Translations under genes and position numbers: made by a program
The notes under the pieces: generated by a model
Told to the model about the DNA's origin: nothing
What the model saw: the letters and a program-made list of their open reading frames with translations, nothing else
Databases searched by the model: none
NCBI GenBank assembly: GCA_973895155.1
Contig: OZ316893.1
Coordinates: 22,603,844-22,667,843 of the forward strand
From: Marsupella aquatica
Taxonomy: Eukaryota > Plantae > Marchantiophyta
Reading direction: 5' to 3'
DNA length: 64,000 bases
In this document: piece after piece, positions 20,859 through 64,000 of the stretch
Layout: each line of letters starts with the position of its first letter
How positions within the stretch are numbered: the first letter of the stretch is position 1

Positions 20859-21051
20859 TCGACTGCTATCTTTCGTTTAAGGTTTCTCCGGTTACTTGTT
20901 TACCCATGTAAAATGCCGCAGGTGTTAGTCGGTGTCCTCACCACGTGTCATCACCTTAAGAAGTCTCCGGTTAGCTTTATCATGTGATATGCAGTGGGTG
21001 TGAAGTTGTTGAACTCACCACGGTCATTGTTTGAACTGTTCGCTGTTTGTC

Positions 21052-39570: not shown

Positions 39571-41816
39571 CTTTATTTAAATTGAAGGAACAAGTAATCA
39601 GGCCAATACTTAATTGTTATATATCACAACTAGACAATGTTGTAATCGTCATTGATGAAGTGCGGTTGTTGCAGCTGTGTTGTCATATCTGGTTTTCATA
39701 GCGGCTCTGTCATAGATGGGGCAGCGTTGTGGTTGTTGAAGTCAATTGTTGTTTTACTGGGTGTTTTGTTGTTGCTGTACTTGCACCTGGGTGGTCATTG
39801 GGGTTGTGTTGTTGCTGGGGTAATGTCTGGACAATTAGAGCAATGCCCATGCATTTCACAATTCATTGAGCAAAGGTGACATTGTTGTGGAAATGTGGTC
39901 ATTGCGGATCTGGAGTCTTTGCACTGAAATTAAACAGGCAGCATAAAATAGGGCATGGAATGAAATGGATAAGGCCAGGAGAGTTGGGGCAAGAGATCAG
40001 GCAAGAGCAGGAGCAAGGCTGATCAAAATGTAGGGGAAGGTTGGGTGAGTCCAGTACAATTAGGACTCCCTTAAATTATCCCCTTTCCAATGTGTGCTTG
40101 TTTACTTGTAGGTTTGGAGCAAAATGACTCTCCAATTTGAAGTATCAAAAAGAACTCACAGCCAATTTCCCCTAGCCTCCTAGATTTCTTGAGCTACCTC
40201 CTCCCCCTTGCAAGTCTTCCCCCTATTTTTGTCCTTGGTTTTTTTGTTTCTTGTAGTTCCTTTCATCCCCCCACCCCCCAACTGCTCAAATCCTCCTTTT
40301 CCCTTTTTTCCTCCCTCTCCAGTCCCATGTTCTACTTTATTTCCCCTCGAAATATATTTTCCCCAACTTCACCCAGCTTTCGGATCATTCTTCCCTCCCT
40401 CGTCACCCAATTCCTTTAGGCCCGCACATGCTACCTGGCCACCTGCTGCCATGGGCAAAGGTCAATTGCCTTTCTTGGACTCTGTCCTATGCAATCCCAC
40501 CAAAACCGCTATACTATGTAATCCCACCAAAATTGGTCCATACTCTGTTTACAAATGGAGTTGTCGGTAGGAACCAATCTGACTAGGCCTATTTTCTAAC
40601 CATAGACCATAGCAGTGCCCCTAGACCTCTCCTAAAGCCTACTTCCTTGGACTGCCAGCCAGTGTGCAACAGTTTGCCTCCCTGGCCAACGCCTGTGCAG
40701 GAATGGGGAGGAGAGGCAGAGGAGGGGAGAGGGGGAAAAAGGGAATACCTCATGCCTCCTTCCTTGCCATCGCCTCCCTAGCTTTGTCCCTGCCCTGAAC
40801 AACCCCCCTCATCCCTCCCTTGCTCACCCTCTTCGCAAAGGTCAGCAACTAACTAGTTTTTTCTTCCACAACACTCCTGCATCAGCCACAATATCAACAA
40901 TACCCTTGACCCCACTCTCAACATTTTCCTTGTTTCCACAGCACTTTTGCATGAACCAGAACATCAACAATACCCCTGACCCCACCCTTGACAATTTCCT
41001 TGTCTCCACAACCCTCCTTTGTCTCTCCTTTGTCTCACCTGGAATTCTTTGCCTCGCCTCAACAATTTCTCTGCCAAAGATATTGGGTCCCTATATTATA
41101 GATGGAAAAGTATAAAGGTCCAATCTTTGGGTAGTTTCTTTGAAGGTGTGTGATGACTTTGGTGGAAACACTGGCAGGACCACCTAAACGCGTTCCAGGC
41201 TCTGTGCATGGACTGTAGCGAATTTCAGGACCTATATCCTGAATTGTTAGGAACAGTCGTAAAGATGAGAAGGTGCCTAAAAAGTCTACGTTCAATTCGT
41301 ATGATCCAATCGTACATACCCATCTGGCCCAAGTCATGACTTTTCCATCCCCGCACTCTGCTGTTTCCTATGGAAAAGCTCTCCCCACAGCTCGCGTCGG
41401 CCATAGATGCCAGCGTCATAGCAGTCGTCACTCCCCAAACACCGTGTTATGGAAAAAGCACTTAGAAAAACAAAAGCTAGTCTTCAACTCTAGCGCAAGG
41501 GATGCCTTGCATTGGTATAAAATTATGCATCTCTTCCACAACCACGGGAATTTAAGCTTCCGAGACCTCCTATCTGGATGGACTGGGGAAATTCTACCGT
41601 TTGAGCTGAATCTCCAGCATGAATCCGAATGCATCTCCGATTTACTAAGGATTACTTTCAGATCTCAGTTGCTGTAAAACCATGTTTGGAGGATTATCTC
41701 TGTAACCGTTACATGCGTCCGAATTCTCCACTGCTTGATCACGGATTGTTTTCATATCTCAGTTTCTGTAAAACTGTGTATGTCATAATCCGAACTCCTT
41801 TCTTTCATTCTTTCAG

Positions 41817-44800
41817 CAATCTAGGTATTTAGCACAGACTCCCGCGTCATTGCCTTTTGGTCCGGATAGAAACTATGTGCCAATTGCGAATTCGATTTTG
41901 CCTCTACGAAATGCACTGGAAAATACAGAAGGGCCCCGAGTAGTGACAGTTTATGGAGGCCCAGGAATCGGGAAGAGCAGCCTAGTGAAATACTTGGCCA
42001 TTCACTACCAAGAAGAGCAGAAGCGACTTGGAATGGACGCATCTTTCCCTCACGGTGTGTATTACCTCTGGTGCGGACATGATGCACGGAACAGAGTACA
42101 GCAGCTGCAACGTGAACTCCTGGAGAATCTTGGGTTTGGAAGTGGATCTGCAACTCCAAATGGCTCTACCAGCACTGGTACTGATGTACAAGAAGCGGAT
42201 TACACTGCTTTGTCTTCAAACAAAATCAAACTCAGATCTCGCTTGGCTGAGCAGGAGTCGCTGGTCATCTTGGACGACTTATGGCAGCCTGAGGTATTGC
42301 AAGAGCTCATCGTTCCTGCAAAGGGTGTTAAATATTTGGTCACATCCCAAATCAGAGACATTCACCTTGTAGCTGAAAAGATCCAGATAAACAGGCCCAC
42401 TCTCAGAGAATCTATCCAGATCTTGGCTAATTATACCGACGGACTTCCAAGAAAGGGTGAATTTCCTGACAATATCAAGGTACGCTTTACAGCTCTGTTT
42501 CGTCAGATTTTCAGTAATTGATGTTTACCGCTAGCGGATAAGGTTTTGGCAAGGCTCTATTTCGAGTACGTAGGCTTTGGAGAAATGAAGGCATGAGCCC
42601 AATTCTCATATGTAAGGCAGCCGCTGTGACATTTCCAATTAGCGTAGTCTTGTGACTGATATTTAACACTATTACTTGCCTCAAGCAGAGCATTGCAATG
42701 GATATTATTGGACTGTTAGAGTTCCACCCGCTGTCTTTGGCCAACATTGGCATCAGCATAAACAGGAGTCGGGCAACTGATATAAAACAGTGGAATGTGA
42801 TAAAGAAACATATATACAACCACCTTGATGAAAGTGATTACAGTCCACCTGCCTATGAGAAGCCATACGGTCTTCCCGTGAGTGTGTCGATGATGCTGAT
42901 GGTGGAGTCGCTACCTGCAGAGGCACAACGGCTCCTTTTCTTGGTGGCTTTGTTGAAGGGTGTAGAATTGCCTGAACCACTAGTGAAGTATTTCTACAGC
43001 TTTATGCAAAAGAAGAATTTTCTGTTGAAGTTTAATCATCATGAGAGGTGTTTAGAAGATAAGTCACTGCTTCAATTGGCCATAGGAGGAGATGGCACAA
43101 TTCTGGACATTCATGGGTTGAGGACGCACTACATTTTAGACAGGAAAAAGCCTGAAGTAAGATCAATAGGTTCTCAAATATTAGCTGCCAGTGCGGGTCA
43201 AGATGTAGCTAAGCTTGTGAGGACGGGGGGAGCAGAGGAAACACTAGTTGCTGTTTTGAGCGCAATGTACTACGATGAATCGCTCGAAGATATTGCAGCG
43301 GGCACTTTCGCGAACCATGTTCGTTTGATCAATGGTGCGGTGGTTCCACGGAACTTGAATATGGAGAAAGACAGACTTGATCTCGTTAAGAGTGCACGAC
43401 GAAAACACTACGGAATCCGAGACCTTGTTTGGCTCTTGAATGCTGATCATGAAGAAGACAGTTGGGAACGACAAGCCCACGAGTCCACAAAGAAGGTATG
43501 GTTTATCATTGCCTAGGAGCAAGTTAAAATGTCGAGATTACAATGAATTTTAATCAGAACTTGTCTCAGTTGTTTTGATATATTGATTCGAAATCAGTCG
43601 TGCGGTGCGTGTTATTATTAAAGATCTTTTTCGGTCAAACCAAAGATGTGATTAATTTTGCGTAGACCTAAATTTTAGTCCAAGAAGAAACGCGATGTCC
43701 TTCATAGGCTCTTCGTACCCATCACATTGTATAATTCTGAAGTGAGTGAAGTTTCCTTGCTGTTTGGATAGTACCCACATTTATCAATGACTTATCATTC
43801 GGGGTTTTGGTGATTGTGACAGATTATCATCAAGTACGTTTGCCAAGGAAAATTGGAGGACCATAGTATGGCACACCTACTACGACTTCCCCAGGCCACC
43901 TCAGCAGCATGTAGAGCACTCAGGGCTCTTTATCATTGCCATGCAGAAGATTTCTTTCAGCACAATATAACTTTTTCAGAAGCATATGTTGAGACGATGC
44001 ACAGTCTGTTGGATCTATTCCATAGCAATGCCATATCAATGGACGAACGAATAGATGTCATCAATGCTTTTCTGCATATTCTTGATTACGAAAGCAAGGA
44101 CTACATCCGCAAATTTGCCGCAGACTATGAGAAACTCTTTGCCATGAAGTCAAATAATTATTTAAGTGAGTGTACAACATTTGCTTTGCGATCGGATTGG
44201 CGTGGTAGAGGGATTCTTACGATGGCAGAGTTTCCTGGACTTTTGGAGTCAATCGTTGTGGTACTAGTAGAACCTGAGAATGACGAGTTAAAAAACGAGG
44301 CAGTATGCCTTTTAAGTTGTTTCTGTCAGCACAGGCGTTTGGCCACGAGAATTGCTGCTTTGCCGGATGCGCTTAATGCGCTCTTCAAGCTTTTCTTATC
44401 CGAGGATGAGCTCCCTAATCGCTTCCTCGATGGCGTCCCCGATGGGTTCTTATCAATTGTACGAAATGGGTGCGCGGGAGCTCTCCTGCTTAACCTTTCA
44501 CATATACCGGAAAACAGGAGTAAACTGGGGGCAATCTCAGGCATCTGGGATGGCCTGGGAGGTATTCTCAGTAAGCTGGAGAGTCAGGAAGACCTGCACT
44601 ACCGTCAGAAGCTACAGGCTTGTGACGCCGCCGGAATTCTGGGGTATCTGGCATTGGAGGAGGATCTTAGAGCCACCATCGCTTCATTTCCTGGCGTTAT
44701 GGAAGGTTTGTTTGTCTTGCAGTGGATCGAGATAGTTATCGAAGCTACTTCCACTGACATGACGGCTAGATATTATTATTCAACAAGAGCATTGATAATA

Positions 44801-45695
44801 CTGTACTCCAAGGAACTGGCTGTCGCAGAATTAACTGACATGCCACCGATAGAAGACTTGGAGAAGTTGTTTGCTTCCGACAACCTTAATGTGTCGAAAG
44901 CCATGATACATAAATCTTATTTCAGTCTGTATTGGACTCGACTTCTGGCATGTATTCAGATCAAATCCTACGCAGAAGGCTTGAAAAATGTGGATCTAGC
45001 TCACTGTCATGCCGATCTGGTCCGAGAATTCGGTTCGGAGAATCTGGTCTGTCAAATTAGCAGTTTCGGGATCCAAAATTCCATTCATGTCTCCCCCGAA
45101 AGCCCATTAAGGTGAGGAAACCTTTTCCTGTGGATCTAAAAATCCACGCCTGTCCCTGCCAGTTCATTTTGCCTACAGTGTATTGTTTTTGAGATGTAAT
45201 ATCTCGTCACAGGTCGTTAGTACTCAAGGTAATAAATTCATCGCTGACCAGAGTCCTGAAATTTCTTTCCTAACAACCGATAACTCCCTTATTAAACGCC
45301 TTCCAACCGCTGTGATACCTTCGGCTTGTCTCTGACTTAACACTACTAACTGCAGGGACTGTCGCACATTTCTACAAGCTATGCTTGAGGACTACTCAGG
45401 AGCCTTGCTGGCTACAAACAGGAGAGTTGAGGAGTATAAAGAACCTTCACGGGACAACTTGGCTGAGAGGGGAGTACTGAAGAGGCTTTCTGGAGATTTG
45501 CAAGGAGGCCTGGATGACTTAAATGCTGCCACTGTCGCACGTTACGGACTGAGTGACGAATGGGATGTCCTGTGGCAACGAGGTTACGTGAAGTATTTGA
45601 TGGGCGACAAGACAGGGGCCAAGGATGATGCAGAATCTGCCCAACGCTTGAAACTTGATGACTTTTTAAGGAAGTCCGTGGACCCTTGTATTTAG
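41817..45695 (+). CDS. NLR-like paralogue (NB-ARC, ARM, TPR) lacking the N-terminal domain and ATG; exons ~41817-42479, 42689-43495, 43823-45111, 45356-45695; possibly a pseudogene
   Basis: GGPGIGKS, LVILDDLW, KYLVTS, HPLSL, DIHG. Same intron positions and phases as 16325-20858. Open frame throughout, but no in-frame ATG before the P-loop. Homology (PVTYLG) continues past TAG 45693 to a second TAG at ~45760. Confidence 0.75.
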
Positions 45696-46169
45696 GTGAA
45701 AGATGAACGTCTTTGGGAGCTTAAGAAAACACCAGTAACCTATTTGGGGCTTTCGCTATAGCTTCCTCCGAAATAGTTCTAGCAGATGTTTTTCCGGCCA
45801 CATGACCTTGGCTACGCCTAATATTTCTGTGTTGTTACGATTTGACCTTAAAATCATTTGGCGAGATCTTTACGGGATACTTTGGCATTGACGTTACTTA
45901 GGTAGACTGACTGTTTGACTTATCGAATCAAGTGCAAATTTATTTGAAATATGCATAGTTTTATTGGGTGATCATGTTATGATTCTGTGATGTAATGGCC
46001 AGTGTCACCCATTTTACATCTCCATGTTCTCACATTCATTCTCCTCAACAATAACAAATGCACAATAATGATTAAAATGATAACATTTTTGCAGCAATCA
46101 CAAAAACCATCAAACAATGACATTTTGTATGCTATATTTTTTTTCAGCACAGAGAGAAAAAGTTTGTCT

Positions 46170-46587: not shown

Positions 46588-47463
46588 TAACATATGAAAA
46601 GGGGATGAGAATCCATCAACGTGCCCAAGGTAAATAGCTCAATGATCAAATCCTTCCACACTCCCTACCACCAGCAAACACTACAACACTATCGGTCGGT
46701 TTTGCGAAGACAATCTCATCGCAACTAACAAGCCCCTGATTTTCATAATTCTGGCCATTGCGAACATACGCGCATCGCACCACCTTCGCACTTTGCGAAC
46801 CTAATAACTTTGCACGCGGACCATCGCAACGGCATCGCAACACCATGGCAAACTGCGAAGCTAAGAGGTTCGCAAGATTCAATACTTGTGCGATCCATTA
46901 TACGTCGCATAAGGTTCGCAAACATACACGCACACGTCCCGCGTGGGCGTCGATATTTGAGAAGGATTTACCATCGCATCATATTTGCAAAATATACTGG
47001 TTCAATTGTTTTGATGGGGATTGTATGACAAAGAGCGATACCGGTGATTTCAGAAGTTTGTGAACGGTTTCGATTAGGAAAGTGCGATCCTAGAAGTATC
47101 ACAAAAACCCGACATATTTGGATCTGAAGTTCTGAAGTTAATTGACTCAAAAAGTGCGACGCCTTGGGGTTTATATTGTGCGATGGGAATGAGTTCTTAA
47201 AGGGTTCGCAAAATTATGATCACAGAGGATTCAATACATTATTTGCAAGGGGTTTTCCTTGGGACCCAATGTGGAAGGCAAAATTGTTGTTTTATAAAAT
47301 GGAAAAGCATGAACAAAATGATAGGGCTTCAAAGAACCCTATACATGGACAAGAGGGGGGAAATATCTGATGCTAGGTCCGCCCTTCTAAACCTATGCTG
47401 CCTCTTCCTACCCTAAGCTCCGGCATGACAAGTCACTCTCATGCATGTATCTCTACAAAATAA

Positions 47464-50400
47464 CTAGAATGGGCTCTTGTGGCTCCTCTTGGTTGGCTTC
47501 TTGGCTGGCTTCTTGCCCTTATCCTTCCGGGGATCCTGTTGGTGACGGGTGCGTGATGGCCGTCGGCGCTCCTGCTCCTGCTGCTCCTCTGGCTCCTCCT
47601 GCCCCTCCTGCTCCTCCTCCTCATCCGCAGGGTCCTCCTCCTCCCCCTGGTCATCAACATGTGCTGATGACACACGACTACCACCACTACCACGGTGGGA
47701 AGAACCTACCTCACGACTACTCCCCCCCCCCCGAGCACCACTAGTACCAGGAGTAGCCCCCTCATCGTCATCACTACTACTCACATCAGCACCCAACCCC
47801 TCAGGCTCATCCGAATCCTGCATCCATTACATATCATTAGTTTCCGCAAGACATAAAGGGTCACTCACAATGTTCGCATGCTAATCATATGGTTCACACT
47901 TAGACACTTACAGTAGCCAACTCGGCATCTACCATCACAAAGAGGTACTTTCGTCCATGCTCTATCGCCACCTCAATATGCTTTTTTGATATCTTCCTTT
48001 TGTACCTCCGATACTGCCATGCATAAAACCAATTAAAATTGGTTAAATTTGCCCTTAAGCATACCCTATAGCCACAAGTGACGCCTAAATCCTCAACTAC
48101 TAAACACGACCCAAAAAAATTTTTTAATTCAAATTTGCGAACCTATAAGCATGGCAACTTGCGAACCACATTTTTTGCGAAGGCGTTGCGATGGAGTTTG
48201 CGATGCGCATTTGTTCGCAAAGGCATCGGAAAATTGAAATGGAAAAAGTCCATGATAGACTTTGCGAGGGGTTTGCGAACAAATGCGCATCGCAACACCT
48301 TCGCAAACTGTGTTCCCGAGAGTTTTTAAAAATTTGCCAAAAATTCTAAGTGTCAGAGTTGCCCTAAACTAGTAACCAAGCAAGCATGCACAACAGCAAG
48401 AACATTCGGGGATGTCATTCACTTGCATTGCACAACTCTGAAAGGAATAGAGAGGTTAGGCACAAGCAAGAGGCACTCACAAAGTGTGACTTGAGGCCGG
48501 GGAGCCCGCCTTGACCCAACTTGTGGACTGGATTGGGGGTGGATTTCACTCGTTTGGCTGCATCTATGAAACGCTTGGGTGGCTTTCCCTCCTGGTCGGC
48601 CACTGTGACGCCAATGACATGGTCCTTATTTTGTAATCTGATTAAGTAGGTTGCTGTATGCAAGGAGTAGCTATTGATATTGCATAACAATTAACAAGAT
48701 GGCAAGAATAAGGGCAATCATGGCGTTAAGAGTAGGGAAATAAAAGCTATGTCGCGGGTGGTCGATGACCATATCTCTTTCAATATGTCACCAAATCCGG
48801 ATCTGTAAAGAGCATTGGAAAGATCTGGTCAAGGCGAGTAAAATCAATATAAAACACTCGGGAAACAGAGGTGTATTAAGGAAGATACGGCCTGATTAGT
48901 GTGACGGGTTAACTTGTGGCCGGAATTAGCGGGTTCGGCTTCAGTTTCGGGTTAACCCAAGCTCGACCACGGCTTAGCTTATGTGAGCACGGCTTTGGCT
49001 TAGCTCAGGTCAGCACGGCTTCAGCTTAGCTCAGGTAAGCACGGCTTCAGCTTAGGCTTAACCCGGGTTCGGATTAGATTGATCCCGGGTTAGACTTAAC
49101 TCAGGTTAGCCTAAACTCGGGCTCAGGTTAGCATAGGTAAGCTCGGGTTCGGGCTCAGCTTAGGCTAGGATAGCGGATAGCGGGTAGCGGCCTAACCCGA
49201 GACCACGGGTTAGCTCTACTCGGGTTAGATAGGATAGCTAGGTTAGCCGAACTCGGGTTAGCTATGTAACTTGGGTTAGCGCAATAGTGAGTACCCCCTC
49301 TCGGTTACGGGGGCATAACTCTCTGTGTATTTGACCAAATCGGCTATAATTGACCTCGTTGGAAAGAGGAGCTCAAGCCGCTTCCAACGCTGTTATCCAC
49401 GCAGCAAATGGTTGAATACAGAAATCGGGAGAGGAGGCGTAAGCTCGCGAAAACCATGGAGGAGGGCCGAATCCGAAGTACATAGCCAATTCGAGATAGA
49501 AATAAAGTTGCGAGTTAGGGTTCAGTAGTTAGAGATAGTGGCGGCTCTGTTAGGGCTGGGATGGGGCTCCAGCAGCATAGCATCCACCCATTTGGGCTCA
49601 ATGAGAGAGTATATAGAGCAGCCCTCCGGTAGAGGCAGCGGGGGAACTTCAGTTGTGTGATCTCACTTAGACTGAGCAGCAGGGAGGAGCTCTGTGCAAG
49701 CAAGGCTGGACTTGGACGCTGCGTGTTGGGGAGAGCTTGGTTGTGCTATTACTCAGGGAGTAATCAGCCAAGCTTCACAGCAACGGGTTGCTAGGTTTGC
49801 GAGCTGGATTGTGGCTCTTTCTAGTGGGCAACACAACTGAGTTCTTTTCCCCCGATACAGAGCCTTGGTGAAGGTGATGTGTTGGTGATTGTAAACTGTG
49901 GGGAGGATTTCAATGCGATTTGCGATGGGCACATTAGGGAGGCTGAGGTACTGATTTAGGGGCAACAGGAGGAGCATTTATAGTTCAGTCTGGCAAGGCT
50001 ACGAGATCCATGGGGAGTCCCGGCCTTTGTCTGGTGGAGAGCACTAAGGGATCTATGGCCAGAGCTGAGCTTGCAGGGCAAGCATGAGGCCGGGCCTCAT
50101 TGTAGTCTGGGGTAGATCACCGTTAGGCCTGGTACCAGCTTTGAAGTCGAGTCAACTGTGCATGCGTACTTGACATTCTGAAATGGAGGTGTGAGATCTG
50201 TATGTGCCCCCAAGAATGAAGTGCAGTGAAGGAGGTTGAGTTCAGGATTGAGTTTGCAAGGCAAGTACGGGATTGGTTCGAGTCCAATCTGCCGTCGCAA
50301 TCTGGAGTGAGCCGGGCTCAGGTTCAGGATTGAGCTTGCATGGCAAGCACGGGGCTTGCGGGGCAAGCACGTCGCAATCTGGAGGAGACAGCCTTCGGGC

Positions 50401-51935
50401 CTAGTGTTCGGATCAAGTGTTCTCAGTGAACTATTGTGCACATCTTTGAATCCAATTGAGTTTTCCTTTCAGGCCTCATTTCTCTCATGGATGTGTGTGT
50501 GTGTGAGGCAATCTGAGTGTATGATGAGACTAGCAGCGCCACTGAGAGGTGTACCGGGTGCATTGAAGTGGGTTGGGTGAGGGCTGTCACAGCTCTAATT
50601 GCTGAGAGTGGAATGGCAGAGTGGTGGGGCAATGGCTTAGAAGTCCCTAAGCTGGGAATCAGTCAGGAGTCACTGGTTTATGGGTACATTACGGCGGTGG
50701 AATAGAAATATACCTATGACAGTAAGCATACGTATAGACCTATGTGCACCGTAGCGCTAGGCCTTGTGTGTACGGGCCCGATATGAAGACCCCTTCTCAC
50801 CAGAACTATCATGAGCGCAGATCTGATCCCCAACCTTGGTTCCTTGGGATTGAGCTTGGGTGATGTGTGATAGAGCTTTGCTATGATAGTCTGGTGTTAA
50901 GGGCATAAATTGGTGTTTACCGGCCTTCACAACATCCCTTCGTGATCCTCAGGTACAAGGAGATGGTTTTGGCACCCATAGTGACGTCTTTGGTGTTAAG
51001 ACCCATGTCAATCGCGTGACAGCCACCTTCTGCATCTCAGCTACCTTCTGCTCAAGTGGCTTCAGGTCGTGGTCAGGGGGGAGCTTCCCGGCCTCCTTTG
51101 CTTTCAAGGCTCGATCTAGATTGCCCTTCCACTCTTCCAACTCGTGAGCTGCCTTAATTTGCACCTCAATCTTGTAAAACGAATTCCATATGTCCTCGGT
51201 GAAGTGGAGGGGTCTGTGCAAGTTCTTGTATGATCTCAAGTCTTTCAGGTGGGCTCTAATCTTCATCCTGTCATGGTATCGCATTTGAGACATAGAATTT
51301 GAAATCTTATCTGCCAACCATTGCTCATCTATGTCAGGCCCATTGCGAAATGCATCCTTGATTTGGTTGATGACCCTCTTTCGCTCTGCCTTCTCAATCT
51401 TCCCCCACTGCATGCCTCATGAGAAATTGCTTGTGATAATCTGCTTGATTGTGCTCTTAGCCCCTGCATATGCTAGCTCAGTTGGAGTCCCACTCGTCTC
51501 CAAGGCAATGAATGGAAGTTTTTTTCTTGCTTCCTCTTTCTGACGTTGCTCCTCCCTCTGTTTTCGAATTGAATCTCTCTCCTCTCTTCTCTTTTGCTTC
51601 TCTAGGGCTTGAGGAGAGGCAACTCCCGACTTAGTTCTTTCCTCTCTCTTCCTTTTTTTCTCTCTAGCCTTCTCTTCAGCTGCGGCCCTCTCCTCCCCCT
51701 CTCTAGTAGCTTGTCCTGCTACAATCCCAGTTTGCAAAACCTGTCCAAGAATGGCACTCAAAGAGGCAAGCCCTGCTGGAGAATTGAGATTCACTTCTCC
51801 CAATTGTGCAGCACTGAGATGTTGGGCCACTAAGTCTGCCCAGGCATTCTTCTCTTTCTCCGGATTTCCCCCATTGCCACTACCACTACCACTACCACTA
51901 CCACCTTGCCCTCCACTCCCCTCACCGGTAGCCAT
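47464..51935 (-). pseudogene. Divergently oriented CACTA accessory gene (possibly TnpA-like), disrupted by a stop and an LTR insertion
   Basis: ATG 51935 (MATGEGSGG..), charged coiled coil, in-frame TGA at 51417, and frame continuing to ~51022 where the LTR cuts it. Further exon-like pieces at ~47915-48020 and an acidic/basic tail at 47464-47823. Confidence 0.55.
48413..51021 (-). mobile_element. ~2.6-kb LTR (solo-LTR-like) nested in the CACTA
   Basis: TGTCA...TGACA termini. ~49170-51021 is the reverse complement of 62202-63965. No gag/pol. No TSD found, so the left boundary is less certain. Confidence 0.7.
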
Positions 51936-52929
51936 AGCTCCCCTCTCTCACAGTCTCCCTCGTACTGTTGCGCGCGCCCCGGCCCTTCTCGTCTCGCTCA
52001 AAAACTGAAATGAGCCCGAATGCGAGCTCCCGCCGATGTTTATGCCGTTCAAAAACGGGTTTGCGATGACATACGCATGGGAAACTGCGAAGCCCGCGCC
52101 CTCGCAAATAGTCTCGCAACTTACTAGGCACTTCCGAATCTATTCCCTTCGCAAGGCCATCGCAACCCGTAGAAGACCCAAAAAATCGTTCTCGGCCTCT
52201 GTTTTTGCGAAGTAAGTGCGAAGGCCGTAGGTTCGCAAAAAGATTCTCTAACTTGGAAATAATTTGCGAGGCAGGTCTTATCGGTTTAGGGTTGGAAAAC
52301 ACTTTGGGGTGTCAAATGGCTATTAAGGTTTGTCAAACGACATTTAAGGTATGTTAAGTGCCCATAAGTTAACATGGAAGGGGTGTCAATGGATGTTTGG
52401 GTTGTAAGGATAACTAGAATATAAGTTAACAAAGGTTTGGGTTTAATTAAAGGTTAGGTTTATATTTGGTTTTAATCTAGGAGTATTTGGTTTAATTAAG
52501 GGGGTTAAAACTTGGGTTAGGTTGGAATAAAAGGGTTGGGTTTAAATTAATGGGTTTGGCTTAGGGTTCAAGGTAGAGGTTTGCATTAGGTTGTGAGTAA
52601 TTACAGGGGTTGGGTTTGGTTTTAGTTGAGGGGTTGAATTGTGGTTGTTTTTTAAAGGGATTGGGTTTGGTTTTTAGTTGGGGGGTTTAATTGTGGTTTT
52701 TTTAAAGGGGTTGGGTTTCTAATGTAAGTGTTTGGGTTGGGGTGTAACATGATATAGGGTTGGATTTGGTTCTAATTGAGGGGGTACAATTTTTGCTTAA
52801 GTTTTAGAAAAGGGCCTCAATTTAGGGGTTAGGGTGAAGTTTAGAATAACTATAGGGGTGGGGGTTGGCCTATATAGGTAAAGTAAGGTGTAGATAGGGT
52901 AAGGGTTTTATATGTAATTGGGGGATTTG

Positions 52930-53650
52930 GGTTGGGTTTAGGGTAAAGGTTTGAATTTTTAATGAGGGATTTGGGTATTGGTTAGGATAAGGGTAAGGGT
53001 TTAGGGTGCTTGAGGGATTTGGGTTAGGTTTTAATGAAGGGTTTCATTTCATGGTTTGGGTTTAGGGTAGGGGTTTGGGTTTAGGGTAAAGGCTTGAATT
53101 TTTAATGAGGGATTTGGGTATTGGTTAGGATAAGGGTAAGGGTTTAGGGTGCTTGAGGGATTTGGGTTAGGTTTTAATGAAGGGTTTCATTTCATGGTTT
53201 GGGTTTAGGGTAGGGGTTTGGGTTTAGGGTAAAGGCTTGAATTTTTAATGAGGGATTTGGGTATTGGTTAGGATAAGGGTAAGGGTTTAGGGTGATTGAG
53301 GGATTTGGGTTAGGTTTTAATGAAGGGTTTCATTTCATGGTTTGGGTTTAGGGTAGGGGTTTGGGTTTAGGGTAAAGGTTTGAATTTTTAATGAGGGATT
53401 TGGGTATTGGTTAGGATAAGGGTAAGGGTTTAGGGTGATTGAGGGATTTGGGTTAGGTTTTAATGAAGGGTTTCATTTCATGGTTTGGGTTTAGGGTAGG
53501 GGTTTGGGTTTAGGGTAAAGGTTTGAATTTTTAATGAGGGATTTGGGTATTGGTTAGGGTGAGGGTAAGGGTTTAGGGTGATTGAGGGATTTGGGTTAGG
53601 TTTTAATGAAGGGTTTCATTTCATGGTTTGGGTTTAGGGTAGGGTTTGGG
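52930..53650 (+). repeat. Tandem array, 5 x 143 bp, rich in telomere-like TTTAGGG motifs; preceded by degenerate GT-rich sequence from ~52400
   Basis: gggtaaagg recurs at 52941, 53084, 53227, 53370 and 53513 (period 143). About three gggtttaggg motifs per unit. Confidence 0.93.
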
Positions 53651-54087
53651 TTACTTATATTTCTTTCTCTATCTCATTAACATGGAGTGGAAAGCTCTTT
53701 GGCGTTGTAGGGCACTTCCCCATGTTTTTTAAAGTTTTGGCTAATGCATGATAATGCCTTGCGACAGCCCGGGCATCTGAAAGGTATAATGTTTTCTCAT
53801 GCATTTCTAGTCATTGCTGTAAATATGGAGGGTTACAATCTATCATCCTTTTTTTCTGGTTCACCATAAGGCATGGCTTAATTCATTGTATATTGGCAGA
53901 TTTTCCCCTCCTTCTTCCAGATATGGTTCATGAAATTTGAGCCACAAGATCCGTCAAGGCATTGCTAAGCCCGGGTCTCATAAAGGTATTTTTTTGTCAA
54001 TTCTTTTTAATATGTTTAGGTAGGGATTATCAATGATGGTTTTGGTGAAGTTTTCACTAATCGCCTTCCAATTGCTATACTTGTCAG

Positions 54088-55249
54088 ATGTCTTCATCCT
54101 CTACAACTTCCACCACATCAGATTCCTCTTCCGATGAAGAAAGTCGTCCTCCTCCTCAGCCTGAACCAACCGTATGTCGACCTAGTGGTCCACCACGCCA
54201 ACTTTGTGGTTGTAAAAAATGTGTGGGGATGGTTGTCCAAAAGTCATATGTATGTGCGGAGCACATTGCTCGATATGGCCAACATCGAGGTCTTACACCG
54301 GGAGCTTCTTCATCCCGTATGGTGAGTTGTAAACTTACTGTGATTTCCATTTTATTTTGTAAATCTTGCTAGGTAGCATAAAATAAAATTTGGGAGGTTC
54401 ATCACACTCACTTGGTTCCATTTCTTCCTATAGGTATCCAGTAGGCCTACACCCACTACACCAACACCCTATGTTCCCTCACAAGGAGTTCTAGATGCTA
54501 TAGGCTCGGCACTTTCACAAGCTTTCTGTTTAGTGGCAGCAGGGCAAGGTAGTGTTGGGACAATTCAGGGTGACGGTATTGTTACAAGAGGGAAAAAAAA
54601 GTCAAAAAGACAGCCTAGAGGGGAATTGGATCAATACACTTGTAGGGTTGATGGTAGATGGGGCCCTTGTACCTTCACAGGGAAGTGTGTTCCTATCATA
54701 AAGGATTGGAATCTGGAGTGCCTTGGTTTGCCATGTGATATAACCTATGGTGAGGAGATAGAAGTTTGGGGAAGACGTTGGGTTGTCAAGAGTTCGACCC
54801 TAGGGGAGAGGCATGGGTATGGGATTTTCTCTTGTCATGACATTATTGTGGATGATATGGGTGGAAAAGGGCGCTCTTCGGATGGACCAACGTTGTTCCC
54901 ATATGGTGGACCCATTTACAAGAGGAGACATTGGAACATGATCCTTGTTCAACACCCTGAGTGGAAGACTTATGCATTGGACATGGATACTTTTGATGGT
55001 TGCACCAGAAAGTATTGTGACCAGTGTATAATTGATGGTGATCCCATCCGTAGTGGGAATATTGCCGGTTTCATCAACAGTACTGTGGGGACCCGGCCTA
55101 AGCGTAGGAAAAACTGTGAATGGGTTTTTGTTGATGGTCCCCCTCCAGCCCCTTATGGGCAGAGATATCATCATGACCATTGTCTAGTTGTAGCTAATAG
55201 GACCATTCTGGTTGGAGAGGAGTTGTTTACACATTATGAATGGGATTAG
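54088..55249 (+). CDS. CACTA-encoded SET-domain protein, ~349 aa; exons 54088-54321 and 54434-55249
   Basis: Exon 1 has CGCKKC...CAEHIARYG (resembles the transposase-associated Cys/His motif). The GT-AG intron (atg|gtgagt ... tatag|gta) is phase 0 and keeps frame. SET hallmarks: VKSS..HGYGIF, PYGG, YAL, IDG...GNIAGFINS, VVANRTILVGEELFTHY. Confidence 0.8.
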
Positions 55250-55399
55250 GATTACTTTAGGGACATGTATTATACGTTCATCGTATGTGAATGTATGTTT
55301 TGTAATGACATGTTCTTTTTATATTGTTAATAATATGTTTCGAGCACTACTATATTTGGAGTTAATTTCATTGTGAATGCTTTATTGTATTGTCTATAG

Positions 55400-58300
55400 A
55401 ATGTGCGGCCTAGTCAAGATATGTTGCCAAGGAGGTTGAGAGTTACATATCAAGAAATGGGCTTGCCACAAGACGGGGAAACATCATCAGCAGATTCCTC
55501 ATCAAGTGACAATGATAATGACAGTCTAGATGAAGGGGCACCTCAGACAGATTATGAGGTCATGCAAGACCAAGAGTCAGCCATGGATGACTTCATGACA
55601 GATTGGTTTGTTGTAGACATTGGTGGTGAAGGAGGTGTCCCACCCAATGAAGGAGATCCTCCACCAAATGTTGCACATGATCCAAGGCCTCAATGTACAC
55701 CTGAAGGACAAAAACGATGGGAAGAAGCTGAGGCACATGCTAGAACACCTATTTATGGGGGTGCTCGTTTGAATAGACTATCTGCCATCTTGGCATTGAT
55801 GAATCTTCACGCAAAACACAAGGCAAGCAATGCGCTACTATCGGATTTGTTTGCAATTTGCCATGATCTATTGTTACCCAGTGAAAATGTGTTGCCAGGA
55901 ACTTGAAAGGAGGCAAAGAGGGTTCTATCATCCATTGGCATGGAATACCATATCATTCATGCTTGTGTGAATGACTGCATTCTCTATCATGAGACCAATG
56001 CCAGCGTAACTGAGTGTCCAATTTGTCAAGAGCCTCGATATGAAACCAACATGTTGACCTCAAAGGTGCCTAGAAAAGCTGTTCATTGGTTTCCTATTAT
56101 TCCTCGATTGTTGCACATGTACCGATGTTCTGACTTGGCAGAATTGATGGTATGGCATAAGACACATTGATCAGAGGCCGGTGTCATGCGGTTGCCAGTT
56201 GATTCCCCTGCTCACAAGCATGTGGAGTCACAATGGCCAGAGTTTGCACGTGACCCTCGTCATGTGAGGTTAGGGTTGGCATCAGATGGGGTGAGCCCAC
56301 ACTCCCTTGGAGGGAAAGGGCGCCCTACTTCGGTTTGGCCGGTGGTTGTTATGAATTACAACCTTCCCCCATGGTTGTCCATGAAAAAGGGATTCTTATT
56401 GCTATCATTGATTATCCCAGGTCCATCTAAGGTAAAAAACATGGACACCTACTTGGCGCTCTTGGTTGGGGAACTCCATAAATTATGGGGGGGTGTATGG
56501 GCATATGATGATCGGACAACTACAGGAGGGTTACCACGTGTCTTCCAATTGAAGGGAATCATTATGTGGACCATGCATGACTATCCAGGTGAGTGGTATG
56601 GATTTGTATTTTTTTCATGTATTGGAGATCAAGTTTGTTTGGAAGGAAGTCCCTCTTTAATTCTATATACATGAACTTTTCAATTCCTTTGACTCTAATT
56701 GAGAATGTTATTTTGTGAGCAGGGTTTGGGTTTGTTTCTGGGTTCCAAACTCAAGGGTACAAGGCATGCTCCACTTGTGGTCCAAGCTTTCACGATATGG
56801 CCAAGTACTCAAAATGGCTGCACAAGATAATCTACCTTGGTCATACCAAGTTTCTTCCACTTGGGCATCACATGAGGTCTGACCCCCTTTTGTTTTCAGA
56901 CTTTGACATGATCAATGGTGATGAGCGTGAGATACCTGACCGCACAACATTTTCGTATTGAAAATCCATAGCTGATAGGGTGGCAGACCCTGAAGATGCC
57001 ATGGGATTTGATGGTAGTGGATTGACAAGGTGGAGTATACTGGCCACTTTGCCCTATTGGCCTGAGTTGAAGATTCATCACTTGTTAGACCCCATGCATA
57101 TAGAGGGAAATGTTGGGAAGGCTTTGATCAAGCACTTTTATGGGGAAAAGAACATAATTTTAGGGAGGCATGCCAGGATCTAGAACGACATCCAGATGTA
57201 TGGATAACAGTTGATGAATCCATAGGGATGGAACATTGTCCTTCAGCTCCATGGGTTTTGAGTGTTGGTGAAAGAAGAGAGTTTTGACAACGCATAGGGC
57301 AGATGCGGCTTCCTACAGGCTATGGTGCCAATCTACGTAAGGCTTTTGGGATGAAGGACAGTCATAAATGGCCAATGTATCTCAAGACACTTGACTATCA
57401 TCGTTTACTACAACATATACTTCCTGTGGCAATCATAGGTTTGGGGAGTGAAGAAGTGCAAGACGCCCTTTGGTCACTGGGCACTTTGTTGAGATGGATA
57501 TGAGCACTCAAAGGAAATATATGAAGAAGAGATACCACGGATGGAGGTATTGGCAGCAGAGGTGGTATGCAAGTTGGAGAAGGCCCTCCCTCCTTCCTTC
57601 TTTGATTGTCAGGTGCATCTTCTCGTTCATCTTGTGAGGGAGGTTGCCATTGCCGGTCCGGTGCATTGTAGGTGGATGTATTGGCTGGAAAGGTATATGG
57701 CCGTGTTAAAGGCTTATGTACGGAACCATGCACGAGTGGAGGGGAGCATGGCAATTGGATACTTGGCAGCTGAGAGTATGTTTTATTGTAGTAACATCTT
57801 AGCTACCATTGATCCTAGTTGTCCACGCACTTGGATGGAAGAGAGGAAAGTGGAGGAGGACCGTTTAACAAGTGCAAAAAAACACGCTTACTAACCGCAG
57901 TGGAGTTGACACAGGTTAGTACTTTCATGTTGAGTAACAGCAATGTGATGGAAGATTGGAGAGAGTTTTATGAGGATGCAAAGAGGGAGAGTCATCGCGG
58001 TCAAAAGCAAGCTTGAGGGGTACTAAAAAGTCTCCCATTTTCTCCACAAAAAGGATATACTCCTTGTCCTTATTCCAAGAATATTCCATAATGACCAAAA
58101 TGTGACATGGAATGGTTAGGATTGCTTGGAAAAACTTTAAAGGTTAGATCTTGCATGCCAAGTCTTTGGAAGTGTGCACAACATTGTTGGAAGTGCCCCC
58201 AACCTTGTGGAAGTGTGTCCAACCTTTTGGGGAGGGTATTCAACCACATTTTAATGACATTTTTAGTCCTTTCCTTCAGTCCTTCAAAAGTGATTGTCCT

Positions 58301-59018
58301 TAGTCCTGATTGCCTCCTTTGGTACCCCTCGATCTTGCTTTCCACCTCGCCCAAGGATCTTTCCAAAGTTCCTTGAGTATATGAAGGAGAAAGTACTTCA
58401 GTTGGATGCTATGGTGGCCCAAGGTGAGAATGTATCACATTTTCCAGATATGACTCCTGAGGTTCGAACAATTGTTCATGGTCCTTTAAGACTTGTTCAG
58501 ACCAGAACAGCAATGTGGACACAAGGGAGGCATTTCAGGATTTCTGACCTTGATGAGAAGAGGGGAAGAACTTTTGATTGTGGAGTTCAAGGGCAGTTCA
58601 TGCAAGATTCACAAAGTAGCCGTCATGACACTAATGTGATCAAAGATGTGGTGCCTCACTATGGGAAGATTGAGGAGATCTTGATCATATCCTATGATGC
58701 CGATTCCAAATTTGAAGAGTATGTCTTCAAGTGTAAGTGGTTCAAAATTCACCTGGTTGGTGATAATCGCACGGTACTTCTTGATGAGTGTGGGTTTACT
58801 CGACTGAAGACATCAAAACTAGCTTTCAACCATCTCATTGGCAAACATCTGAACCATTTACATTCCCAAGTCACCTTGAGCAGTGTTTCTATATTCCGTA
58901 CCCACCAGACCCAGAGTGGTCAGTTGTTATACCGTATGTGCCACGGTCCCATTCCATTATTCGGAAAAACCTGACGTTATTATTGTGTCAAATGGAGGAG
59001 GATGAGGACCAGGTTTGA
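55400..59018 (+). pseudogene. CACTA transposase (Tnp2/Transposase_21-type with downstream conserved domains), inactivated
   Basis: IHACVNDCILY..CPICQEPRY, FPIIPRL, LGLASDG, YNLPPWL, HDYPG, LDPMHIEGNV, PPSFFDCQVHLLVHL, WMYWLERYM, YGKIEEI, FKCKWF. Stops at 55904 and 56168 plus frameshifts. Intron 56589-56722. Confidence 0.92.
57999..58346. mobile_element. 348-bp MITE inserted in the transposase
   Basis: TIRs ggtcaaaagcaagcttgaggggtac / gtacccctcgatcttgctttccacc with a 4-bp TSD tcgc. Removing it restores ..RESHRPRIFPKF.. Confidence 0.85.
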
Positions 59019-62000
59019 TGCACTAGTAGTAAAACTTGTTGTGGGCCCAGAATTTGACCCTAAACTAACTATCATGGTTTTATTTATATTAACATATTAA
59101 TTTTCTTCTTTTGTTTTACAAACACTTAATTGGACTTTGAAATTTCATCTCACTGTTATATATGCAACCCTAGCCGTTTCCAAAGCTATCCTCATGCATG
59201 CCACCTTTTTGAAAACCCTACCTGTAACCTAAACACATGCATTCTCCATCTTGTAAAGAAACTCTCTCAAACATTTCCATTCTACAAACTTTTCAAACAA
59301 CTCTCTTTGCAAAACATTTTCAAGCTTGTCAAGAAGCAACTTCTGAACACTTTGTGAATAACACACCATTGGTAATTGTGATGCCAATGGGTTCTCAACT
59401 TTGCGAATCAACTGGCTTCGGTAACTTGCGACTATTTATACTTCACAATATTTTGCGAAGCTAATAGGTTCACAAGATATATTTGAGTACATTATTATCG
59501 CTAAATTATGAAACAAAAGAGATCCAAATGCAGTCGCGATGGTCGCGGATCCACAAATACTTTGCGAGACGAATAGTATCTGAAAGAGTTGCGAATTCAA
59601 TCCGATCTCAAACAAATTGCGAGGTATTTAGCTTTGCAATGTCACTATGTTGCGAACCTTTGAGCATGGTTTATTGTGATGCGTGTTTGATCACAAAATA
59701 TCTGAAGTCGATGACATCGCAAGACCATCCCGGCGTAAAAAAAAAGCTTCGCAAAAGGGGCCAATATGTAGTAGTGAAACAATAAATTAGAATAGTATAA
59801 AATGGCCAATATTGTTTCTGACATGCTAGGCATTCTCCAAACGTCCACCCGCCTTCAAAATCCTCCATTTTTCTTTTCTTCTGCCCTCTCCCCTCCCCTG
59901 CTCTCCTTTATTTCCCACCCTGACCCAAGTTTTAGATGATGCCCTCCCTCCTCACCCGATTCCTTGGGGCCCCCCATGCTCCCTAGCTACCTGTTGCCAT
60001 GCACAAAGGTCACTGCCCGCCGTGCACTCTATATGCCCTTTTAAAATCATTTTGACTATCAGGAAATATGATACTCTTTATGCCCTCTTTAAAAAATTTG
60101 ACTATCAGGAAATAACATGGACTCTATGCCCTTTTATAATAATTTTGGCGATCAGGAACTTAAAGGATGGACCTGCAAGTTGTCCATGAAGCCATGATGG
60201 AGAAACCAAACCTGCATGGACTTCATTAAAACATGAGGATATGCTTGGATACTGGTTTTTACATTTTTGTCCCAAATGAAAAACCAAACCTGCATGGACT
60301 TGATTAAGATATTCTTGGATACTGCATTTTACAGTTCTATCCCAAAAATACATTCATTTGTCAGTAACCAAATCATCACTTCAATTTGTCCAGAGATTTT
60401 CTTTGTCACTAACTCTGTTACCATTTCTATCTTAAAAGTACTTTGTCAGTGTCCATAGCGCTTTAATTTGAGAGCATGGCTTCATTCTTCCAATACTCTT
60501 TCCCTCCACATAGTTACTCTAACCATTTTTTTAGAGTTTAGTAAAAAAATTAAAAATTTAAAGTACATTTAGGTCCTTAATTATATAAATACCTGATCTG
60601 GCCTTCATGGTAGATGGAACATTGAGTAGATTCAATGCTTCACATTTTACTCATACGGCTCAAGTAATTTGCCCAATGGTGAAAACCAAATGAACTAAGT
60701 CTTAATTTCCTCAACAAAAAACAATCATGCTTATAAGCCCCACAAAAGGAAGGAACCAAGCAACAAGATGACTCATGAACCAAGGAAACAATTCTCACCA
60801 AGGAGGCTGGGGGGCAAATTAATCTCTGAAATTACAATTTTTTTATACACAATCATTCTTGAGATCAAATCATTGATACTTACGAGGATACTTAGTTTCC
60901 AAAATGACTATATGACTTTCACAAATGTTGTTACAAAATCTTGATTTTATAGAGCATTGCTCTTGTTACCAGAATTGTAGTAATTTTTCATTGCAAAGCT
61001 AAAGGAAATTTTAAGTTGCATAAGTATTGTTGTAGAATCCTAGTTTTTCAGAGACTATTGGTCTTGTTATAAAGAGTTTTGATTAATTTATTGTTGCAGA
61101 GCTACTTGAGATTTAATTTTTTGGGAGTCTTGTTGATGAATCCTATTTTTCAAAGAGCGCTTAGAGTAATTTTTCCGTTGTGAAGCTACCAAGAATCATG
61201 TTTTTCATACAGCGCTGCCCTTGTTACAAGAACCGAGCACTTTGAGTACTTTGTCGCTGCCCAAGAGATTTTAAATGTGCACCTTCAATCCACCTTCAAT
61301 CCATTCTCATGTACATTCTCAATTTGATTTTAGATCACATAATGTTCTTGTCCTGACAGAAATTTAGGTAAACAATTAATGAGAGGAATTCTCCATGAAT
61401 TCTGATCCATTTGCAGGTGGGTTGTCTCAAGATTATGTGTGAAATGATCTGTCCTCTTTCACAGTCCATGGGGATAGCTAAAGACAACATAATGGTCCAT
61501 CCGAGCTTGGGTTTTGATAAATCACACTGCCCAAATCCAATCCCACCTCGTTGAATTCATAAATAAACCTTGCCCAATGTTTTGGGGGATCATCAACCAC
61601 TAACCCCTATTACCCATTCTTTGAATGTGAATAGAAGAGAGTACAATAAAGTTGACAAAATATATTCTCTATTCCAATTCTTTGAATATTAATGAAATAG
61701 GAGAACACAACCATGCATGTCATCATCTTATTCTTTGAATATGAATGAAATGATACAAAAGTATCATTCATGTCGTCATTTTAACATGACCAATGAATAT
61801 ACCATCCTCCTATATATATTGGTGGGGCCCTAGAGTCTCAGTCTAGAGGCTTTACTCTAGAAACCTAGCCCCCAACTCTAGCTTCTCTTTGCGGCTTATA
61901 AGTGAAATTATAATTATCTGCAATCCCATCTAAACCCCTCCACTGTCTATTTACAAATGGAGTTAGGGGCAGGAAGCAATCCAGGCCTAATTTTCACCAC

Positions 62001-62201: not shown

Positions 62202-64000
62202 TGTCAAGCGGTTGACATTGGGTCTTGACACCAAAGCTATCACTATTGGGTGCCAAAACTATCTCCTTGTACCTGAGGATCACGGAGGGATGTTGTGAAG
62301 GCTGGTATACACCGGTTTATCCCCTTAACGCCAGACTATCATAGCAAGACTCTGTCACACATCACCCAAGCTCGATCCCAAAGGACCAAGGTTGGGAATC
62401 AGCTCTTGCACTCATGATAGTTCTGGTGAGAAGGGGTCTTCATGTCGGGCCCATACACATAAGGCCTAGCGCTACGGTGCGCATATGTCTATACGTATGC
62501 TTACTGCCATAGGTATGTTTCTATTCTGCCGCCGGAATGTACCCATAAACCAGTGACTCTGACTGATTCCCGGCTTAGGGACTTCTAAGCCATTGCCCCA
62601 CCACTCTGCCATTCCACTCTCAGCAATCAGAGTTATGACAGCCCTCACCCAACCCACTTCAATGCACCCGGTACACCTCTCAGTGGCGCTGCTAGTCCCA
62701 TCATACACTCAGATTGCCTCACACACACACACACATCCATGAGAGAAATGAGGCCTGAGAGGAAAACTCAATTAGATTCAATGATGTGCACAATAGTTCA
62801 CTGAGAACACTTGATTTGAACAATAGTCCCAAAGGCTGTCTACTCCAGATTGCGACGTGCTCGCCCCGCAAGCCCCGTGCTTGCCATGCAAGCTCAATCC
62901 TGAACCTGAGCCCGGCTCACTCCAGATTGCGACGGCAGATTGGAATCGAACCAATCCCGTACTTGCCTTGCAAACTCAATCCTGAACTCAACCTCCTTCA
63001 CTGCACTTCATTCTTGGGGGCACATACAGATCTCACACCTCCATTTCAGAATGTCAAGTTACGCATGCACAGTTGACTCGACTTCAAAGCTGGTACCAGG
63101 CCTAACGGCGATCTACCCCAGACTGCAATGAGGCCCGGCCTCATGCTTGCCCTGCAAGCTCAGCTCTGGCCATAAATCCCTTAACTAGTGCTCTCTACCA
63201 GACAAAGGCCGGGACTCCCCATGGATCACGTAGCTTTGCCAAACTGAACTGTAAATGCTCCTCCTGCTGCACCTTGATCAGTGTCTCAGCCTCCCTACTA
63301 TGCTCATCGTAAATGCAATCAAAATCCTCCCCACAGTTTACAATCACCAATACATCACCTATCACCAAGGCTCTGTATCGGGGGAAAAGAACCCAGTTGT
63401 GCTGCCCACTAGAAAGAGCCACAATCCAGCTCGCAAACCTGGCAAACCGTTGCTGTGAAGCTTGGCTTGCACAGAGCTCCTTCCTGATGCTCAGTCTACA
63501 TGAGATCACACAACTGAAGTCCCCCGGCCCCCCCGTTGCCTCTACCGGGGGTCTGCCCTATATACTCTCATATTGAGCCCAAATGGGTGGATACTACGCT
63601 GCTGGAGCCCCGTCCCAGCCCTAACAGAGCCGCCACTATCTCTAACTACTGAACCCTAACTCGCAACTTTATTTCTATTTCGAATTGGCTATGTACTTCG
63701 GATTTGGCCCTCCTCCATGGTTTTTGCGAGCTTGCGCCTCCTCTCCCGATTTCTCTATTCAACCATTTGCTGCGTGGATAGCAGCGTTGGAAGCGTCTTG
63801 AGCTCCTCTTTCCAACGAGGTCAATTATAGCCGATTTGGTCAAATACACAAAGAGTTATGCCCCCGCAACCGAGAGAGGGTACTCACTGCTGCGCTAACC
63901 CGAGTTACATAGCTAACCCGAGTTCGGCTAACCAAGATATCCTATCTAGCCCGAGTAGAGCTAAACGGTGGCCTTTGGATAATCTGCTACCCGCTAGTCT
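62202..64000 (+). mobile_element. LTR of the same family as 48413-51021, running off the right edge of the window
   Basis: Begins TGTCA and is a colinear reverse-complement match to 51021->~49170. TATA-like cctatatact at ~63557. Confidence 0.8.

Follow-up and report, generated by a model that had tools for sequence, protein, structure and literature searches.

Which protein does a first exon belong to when two unrelated coding parts stand behind it, both in phase with it? The question is raised by a 64,000-nt stretch of the liverwort Marsupella aquatica (contig OZ316893.1, positions 22,603,844 to 22,667,843; hereafter the window, with coordinates counted from its first letter). The region under study is enclosed by a 13.1-kb CACTA transposon (46679-59776), in which an exon encoding a Cys/His motif is followed by an exon for a SET protein and then by the body of the transposase. 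A sequence-only reading of the stretch had proposed that the Cys/His exon is spliced to either of the two, through a switch in splicing and polyadenylation. In the related elements compared here, a conserved SET exon sits between the Cys/His exon and the transposase body, and the arrangement of frames and splice signals suggests that the Cys/His exon is probably spliced to either acceptor.

Results

The coding parts in question, all on the plus strand, are listed below; a caret marks a splice boundary.

54088-54321, plus strand: shared first coding exon (E1), with a Ser/acidic stretch, then CxCxxC-x13-H-x4-G, and a phase-0 donor (sequence, relatives)
54322-54433, plus strand: predicted short intron of 112 nt to the SET acceptor (gene models P0001, P0004 and P0012)
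54434-55249, plus strand: SET terminal exon, 271 codons and stop, frame intact (PF00856, relatives)
55250-55399, plus strand: A+T-rich spacer of 150 nt, predicted to serve as SET 3' untranslated region and as transposase branch point and acceptor (sequence, relatives)
55400-56588, plus strand: transposase exon 2, with acidic linker, core start and PF02992; two premature stops in this copy (sequence)
56589-56722, plus strand: predicted transposase intron 2, GT..AG, phase 1 (equal place in related loci)
56723-59020, plus strand: rest of the transposase, with DUF4218 and a weak DUF4216, stops, frameshifts and a 352-nt insertion (Pfam)

E1 comprises 234 nt or 78 codons and ends in phase 0 at CGTATG^GTGAGT. 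The acceptor TTCCTATAG^GTA at 54434 opens a SET frame of 271 codons that closes with the stop at 55247-55249, and E1 and SET together form an open frame of 349 aa. At 55400, the acceptor TGTCTATAG^AAT marks the start of the transposase frame, with a TAG stop of that frame immediately before it. The coordinates of E1, its phase-0 donor and the two phase-0 acceptors, as described in the sequence-only reading, were all borne out, as was its statement that the transposase frame has no Cys/His N-terminus of its own: no CxCxxC..H motif precedes the first core block.

One scan of metagenome contigs with the E1 alignment returned 63 related loci. A scan of prokaryote genomes gave one weak match of 31% (L001, excluded from all counts), and viral contigs searched with the SET alignment and a Tnp2 piece gave no match. 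Since 62 of the 63 loci belong, by protein likeness, to one Sphagnum-type family and L013 to another lineage, the comparison covers about three independent lineages, the window included. They share one order, in which the minus-strand gene comes first, then E1, a short intron, the SET exon closed by its stop, the spacer and finally the transposase. The conservation of acceptors and phase that the sequence-only reading had proposed as a check was largely found. The E1 donor is GT in phase 0 in all 51 loci that cover it (12 of the 63 do not), and the SET acceptor AG is retained in 28/33 covering loci, the other five having one G>A change. TAG^AAT precedes the transposase frame in 9/9 Sphagnum-type loci and in the divergent L013 (10/10), which keeps it though its spacer, at 219 nt, is 70 nt longer. 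The splice signals are kept specifically, because intron 1 and the spacer resemble those of a relative no better than shuffled sequence does (56 and 58% identity, against shuffle maxima of 56 and 62%, respectively).

SET comes next after E1 in 23 of the 25 loci with at least 300 nt behind E1, the remaining two (L044 and L049) being interrupted by unrelated sequence; in none of the 25 is E1 directly followed by the transposase. The predicted junction between E1 and SET is also the one drawn in named gene models from Calypogeia fissa and several species of Sphagnum, among them P0001, P0004, P0012, P0017, P0023, P0034, P0037 and P0067.

All three coding parts are under purifying selection. In the SET core, the ratio of nonsynonymous to synonymous substitution rates (dN/dS) is 0.15-0.19 (7 loci; dS 1.2-1.5), near the 0.11-0.13 found for the transposase core (5 loci) at a similar dS of 1.2-1.5, which argues that SET has travelled with the element under selection. 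For the E1 core, dN is 0.16-0.27 vs a dS of 0.9-1.5 (10 loci).

The SET exon of the window matches PF00856 above the cutoff (25-26 vs 22.4 bits), the same family is matched in 29 of 33 homologues (E up to 0.1), and the language-model neighbours of the exon are SET clusters (0.97). GYG, YGG, Asn and the terminal Tyr (ELFTHY) are nearly invariant among the homologues. The product is a predicted lysine methyltransferase, of 349 aa with E1. The SET domain is preceded by a predicted helix that is conserved and by a basic patch, which could be a nuclear signal.

In its Cys/His spacing E1 agrees with the domain found at the N-terminus of CACTA transposases (PF13963, transposase-associated domain; a weak match below the cutoff). 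PF13963 was the only Pfam family to recur when E1 was searched with its relatives (4/6 and 5/16 sequences, best E 0.009), and E1 aligns only to the Cys/His half of it (profile positions 36-64 of 74). A profile search with E1 against 1.8 billion representatives gave 22 matches, 20 of which were inspected. Among 16 aligned E1 sequences, with identities down to 33%, the three Cys and the Gly are invariant (16/16) and the His nearly so; the aligned relatives keep C-x-C-x2-C and reach intron-like sequence at the identical donor position. The Arabidopsis ATENSPM6 transposase, as given in one row of supplement 2 of PMC4158355, starts with CPCxxC-x14-H-x4-G, followed by an acidic linker and a PLY..HTIDVC..NC core. 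E1 joined to the 55400 frame would have the same order of parts, if the predicted splice occurs. The far splice would thus rebuild an ordinary transposase, because E1 supplies the Cys/His motif and the 55400 frame the linker and core. Among the angiosperm CACTA transposase introns listed in supplement 1 of that paper, the earliest is at residue 158, the others are at residue 462 or later (>=462), and none is near 78 (PMC4158355).

Two side observations concern the history of the SET exon. P0041 of Calypogeia fissa has no E1 and is distantly homologous to SET (31-37% identity); it could be the sister group or the source of the captured exon. Between the liverwort and peat-moss elements (54434-56588 compared with L013, L036, L038 and named proteins), the SET protein is 66-76% identical, with a dS to the window of 1.2-1.5, and horizontal transfer between bryophyte lineages is possible.

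The element and the state of this copy

The ends of the element and the repeats and insertion on its left side are as follows.

46676-46678, no strand: left target-site duplication AAA (right copy 59777-59779; empty-site joint)
46679-46708, plus strand: left CACTA terminus (CACTAC...); related loci end in CACTACAACAAC
46679-48400, no strand: subterminal region rich in TCGCAA/TTGCGA (19 motifs, 11 per kb)
48604-51021, no strand: insertion resembling a solo long terminal repeat (LTR), TG...CA with a 5-nt duplication GCCAC, private to this copy (sequence, DNA runs)
59747-59776, minus strand: right CACTA terminus (sequence)

The element starts with CACTAC at 46679 and ends with the reversed CACTAC at 59776, its termini matching at 16 of 30 bases, and is flanked by a 3-bp target-site duplication (AAA/AAA). 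The window was compared with genomic contigs of four DNA runs, and two of the four (X3 and X4) contain the empty-site joint 46675->59777, which skips 13101 nt, that is, the element and one duplication. L052 is a complete related element with an ACA/ACA duplication. TCGCAA/TTGCGA motifs occur at 11-19 per kb at both element ends, including nine in 59301-59776, vs 0.17 per kb to the left of the element. The transposase matches PF02992 (E 8e-40) and PF13960 (E 1e-33) strongly and PF13952 weakly (E 0.21). The element belongs to the CACTA (En/Spm) superfamily: termini, 3-bp duplication, Tnp2 domains and subterminal repeats all fit. The nearest named proteins are those of the liverwort Calypogeia fissa and of Sphagnum mosses.

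The copy in the window is decayed, its transposase containing several stops, frameshifts and one insertion. The stop at 55904 is missing from the other copies found in all four runs, and copies without the 2.4-kb solo-LTR-like insertion are present in 4/4 runs (joints skipping 2423 nt). In the SET exon, six of the nine best-supported differences that were classed, from among the top 40 listed, alter a residue. A second LTR-like copy, inverted and 88-98% alike to that at 48604-51021, lies at ~62247-63996.

Leader and minus-strand gene

Upstream of E1, the element contains a divergent gene and, between it and E1, the following features.

47464-51935, minus strand: divergent accessory gene, candidate TnpA-like, broken by a stop and the solo LTR (no Pfam match; homologous frames in relatives)
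51951-52400, no strand: putative bidirectional promoter region (8 TCGCAA/TTGCGA motifs, 18 per kb)
52932-53652, plus strand: five nearly identical 143-nt tandem copies rich in TTTAGGG (plant telomere motif), between the two divergent genes
53756-53783, plus strand: predicted leader exon U1, 3' end (GCCCGGG...AAAG^GTA), start undefined (conserved in three lineages)
53900-53985, plus strand: predicted leader exon U2 (71% identity to L013, 63% to L038)

The two short exon-like pieces that the sequence-only reading had noticed upstream of E1 are indeed present, with ends at 53783 and 53985 and AG^GTA donors. Because both pieces and their donors are kept in all three lineages (shuffle maxima for U2 were 55-56%), a spliced 5' leader is supported. 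That the leader exons are coding in frame with E1 was considered and set aside, the frame to E1 not being maintained in the relatives inspected. The last 27 nt of U2 begin with five codons (53959-53973, with equivalents in L013 and L038) that read ALLSP in three lineages with silent differences only; this frame breaks before E1 in relatives, and possible readings are a short frame upstream of E1, what was once a micro-exon, or a motif conserved in DNA or RNA. A conserved role of the TTTAGGG-rich array was likewise rejected, as no such array was found in eight relatives checked, which have 0-2 TTTAGGG upstream of E1 vs 17 here.

Most related loci contain a frame homologous to the minus-strand gene, with 50-64% identity, and a Pfam search with it gave no relevant match. 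Lying divergent from the E1 unit, it is a candidate TnpA-like gene, whose product may be a DNA-binding protein that recognizes the TCGCAA motifs. DNA targeting may come from this protein rather than from E1, because the TCGCAA motifs clustered at both ends and before the leader resemble the target of TnpA-Spm1, given as CCVTCGCAAA (bioRxiv 10.64898/2026.08.24.746577).

Outside the transposon, a local cluster to its left is made up of a host gene in three copies that have diverged (70-85%; ~16700-19970, 23270-24650 and 41800-45700). The copies gave no Pfam match and are presumably of armadillo-like repeat character. Two long inverted arms (1300-2257 and 21050-22005), 93-100% complementary and ~19-20 kb apart, are probably another repeat pair.

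Discussion

A number of results count against the use of both junctions or against an active SET product, and they are taken up here together with the rival explanations. The related loci amount to about three lineages, and every locus and run examined is genomic, both junctions being predicted. Among the joints listed for the four genomic runs, no GT..AG joint was seen at either junction or at the control intron 56589-56722, which weighs neither for nor against the splices. The PF13963 matches of E1 are all below the Pfam cutoff (16.6 vs 27.7 bits), no ordinary CACTA transposase was among the 22 matches of the E1 profile search, and E1 had no language-model neighbours of note (best 0.78). A direct join of E1 to the transposase is absent from the gene models retrieved, although the searches were too weak to show absence: among long proteins bearing E1 there were four candidates and one match, and the transposase start gave one match, P0099, which is without E1. 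The shared exon with two acceptors put forward by the sequence-only reading is well supported by conservation and by the likeness of E1 to a transposase N-terminus, but none of the models retrieved shows the join of E1 to the transposase.

One rival explanation is that E1 belongs to SET only and the transposase starts from the ATG at 55421, the case that the sequence-only reading had named as a refutation, with a leader exon joined to the 55400 acceptor or with an internal promoter. All retrieved models use E1 with SET, this ATG is conserved in 9/9 relatives, and the conserved leader exons upstream, with their donors, provide a possible donor. Such a transposase would, however, miss the N-terminal Cys/His domain present in ATENSPM6, and three lineages agree in having the 55400-type acceptor in phase with E1. 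Between acceptor and ATG lie seven codons (NVRPSQD vs NIRPSED) that look constrained: five residues are kept, the other two are replaced conservatively, and one Ser has switched codons. Their similarity score has P = 0.001 (six differences placed randomly, in one pair of sequences), whereas P is 0.077 by identity only and dN/dS is not clearly <1. We regard a start at 55421 as unlikely.

The spacer bears on how the SET mRNA would end. The tract after the SET stop is A+T-rich as described earlier (73% in the window), while its 3'-untranslated-region-like character could not be distinguished from an intron-like one. AATAAA is absent from the spacers (136-219 nt; 150 nt here); TGTAA, present once in the 150 nt, is found in 4/4 of them, each with a chance expectation of 26-36%. 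The polyadenylation switch of the sequence-only reading gained no positive evidence beyond A+T richness. Both acceptors might therefore be used without such a switch, in which case the SET mRNA would have a long 3' untranslated region running through the transposase, with an intron (56589-56722) downstream of its stop, and would probably be curbed by nonsense-mediated decay, so that the SET isoform would act mainly as a splice sink limiting the transposase. This is compatible with the splice part of the explanation preferred here. The purifying selection on SET over a dS >1, which a sink would not need, suggests that the protein itself matters, and we consider the sink unlikely.

A fusion like that in SETMAR, in which splicing or read-through would carry E1-SET on into the transposase, was also considered, the SET and transposase frames being in phase in the window. 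The models P0027 and P0070 speak for it in joining E1, a truncated SET and the transposase, but do so at mutually discordant points. The stop after SET is conserved, the two frames are out of phase in 8/8 relatives tested, and the spacer contains stops. The last GT common to all lineages, at 55187, lies upstream of the terminal ELFTHY, leaving no shared donor after the terminal Tyr, and of the 16 shared GTs not one stands in a donor-like context in every lineage. Fusion or read-through was set aside as very improbable.

Whether the SET product is an enzyme depends on its motifs. SET domains have GxG, YxG, NHS and ELxxxY motifs with assigned roles. In the SET exon, NHS reads NS(T), with the His replaced by Ser, and there is no Cys-rich post-SET part. 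Structure predictions were of low confidence (predicted local distance difference test scores, pLDDT, of 41 and 39), the best matches of a fold search, to G9a/GLP SET domains, were not significant (E about 2 over 27 columns), and no solved SET structure was matched by sequence. The protein may then be catalytically dead and serve as a binder or decoy, for instance of histone tails or host silencing factors, through its fold, N-terminal helix and zinc motif. The near invariance of GYG, YGG, Asn and the terminal Tyr argues otherwise. PR-type SET enzymes likewise lack the NHS His, and one neighbouring language-model cluster has PRDM2_PR on 10% of its members. A dead SET protein is a minority possibility in our judgement, albeit one to be kept in mind.

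The preferred explanation, in which E1 is spliced to either acceptor, suggests the following model. One promoter and leader would feed E1; use of the near acceptor would give E1-SET, a predicted lysine methyltransferase of 349 aa, and use of the far acceptor, past the SET exon, would give a transposase with its usual N-terminus. The two products would exclude each other, since a conserved stop closes the SET exon and none of the shared donors lies beyond its last motif. E1 might then act in both as the common targeting or interaction module suggested by the sequence-only reading. The near 112-nt intron may be the default splice and the 1078-nt skip the rarer one, throttling transposase output, and the SET mRNA would end in the spacer. 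The SET exon may have entered the first intron of the transposase and come to use the promoter, leader exons and start codon of that gene. We give somewhat less than an even chance to the further proposal that the SET protein acts in the nucleus, where it would methylate histones or a protein encoded by the element and so keep the chromatin of the element permissive. The fullest version, a bryophyte CACTA splice switch between the transposase and the element's own histone methyltransferase, in which the common zinc-binding start guides the enzyme to the element or transpososome and the marks shield it from host silencing, is offered tentatively and is on balance doubtful.

According to the available accounts, maize En/Spm and Arabidopsis ATENSPM3/7 splice a single gene alternatively to make both TnpA and TnpD (PMC13547354; bioRxiv 10.64898/2026.08.24.746577). 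The window element resembles these as a CACTA element with one transcription unit predicted to yield the transposase and a second, regulatory protein, and in its clustered TCGCAA motifs, which recall the TnpA-Spm1 target CCVTCGCAAA. The analogy with En/Spm drawn by the sequence-only reading is nevertheless loose, to judge from the same accounts: the second product is a predicted SET protein and not the DNA-binding protein TnpA, the SET exon, placed in the first coding intron of the transposase, would have the N-terminal Cys/His exon, the transposase's own predicted zinc-binding start, in common with it, and the candidate TnpA-like gene stands apart on the other strand.

Other DNA transposons are described as carrying a SET domain as cargo, namely HarbingerS and MuDR elements of Phytophthora (PMC12730594), and Helitrons and PAG2 of the EnSpm/CACTA-related Plavaka elements in the red alga Bostrychia (bioRxiv 10.1101/2025.02.11.637652). 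The oomycete and red-algal SET genes are, in these descriptions, accessory genes, PAG2 with a DNA methylase domain, whereas the window contains a land-plant Tnp2-type CACTA element with SET nested in the transposase gene. A further parallel (PMC12730594) is offered by VANC of VANDAL elements and by the TET/JBP-bearing fungal transposons, in which an element-encoded factor plausibly counters host silencing, as SET might do here, though the biochemistry differs. Both the carriage of SET genes by transposons and the alternative splicing of CACTA transcripts were known already. SETMAR is a single fused, domesticated host protein, and, unlike it, the window element is mobile and multi-copy, with two products predicted to be mutually exclusive. 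The likeness to SETMAR/Metnase, as that gene is outlined, is in having SET and transposase coding parts in one gene (PMC9062482). The literature covered, Repbase Reports and most subscription journals lying outside that scope, yielded no account of a plant CACTA transposase with a SET exon nested in it, and an earlier annotation is possible.

If the model holds, a transposon can capture a chromatin enzyme and needs no new promoter for it: the enzyme is placed behind the transposon's first exon as an alternative last one, and the amounts of regulator and transposase would be coupled. The elements would also provide a natural test of the role of the N-terminal Cys/His domain of CACTA transposases, since two proteins of unrelated kind would carry it, as well as a small SET enzyme adapted to plants, the substrate of which could be assayed in moss or liverwort models.

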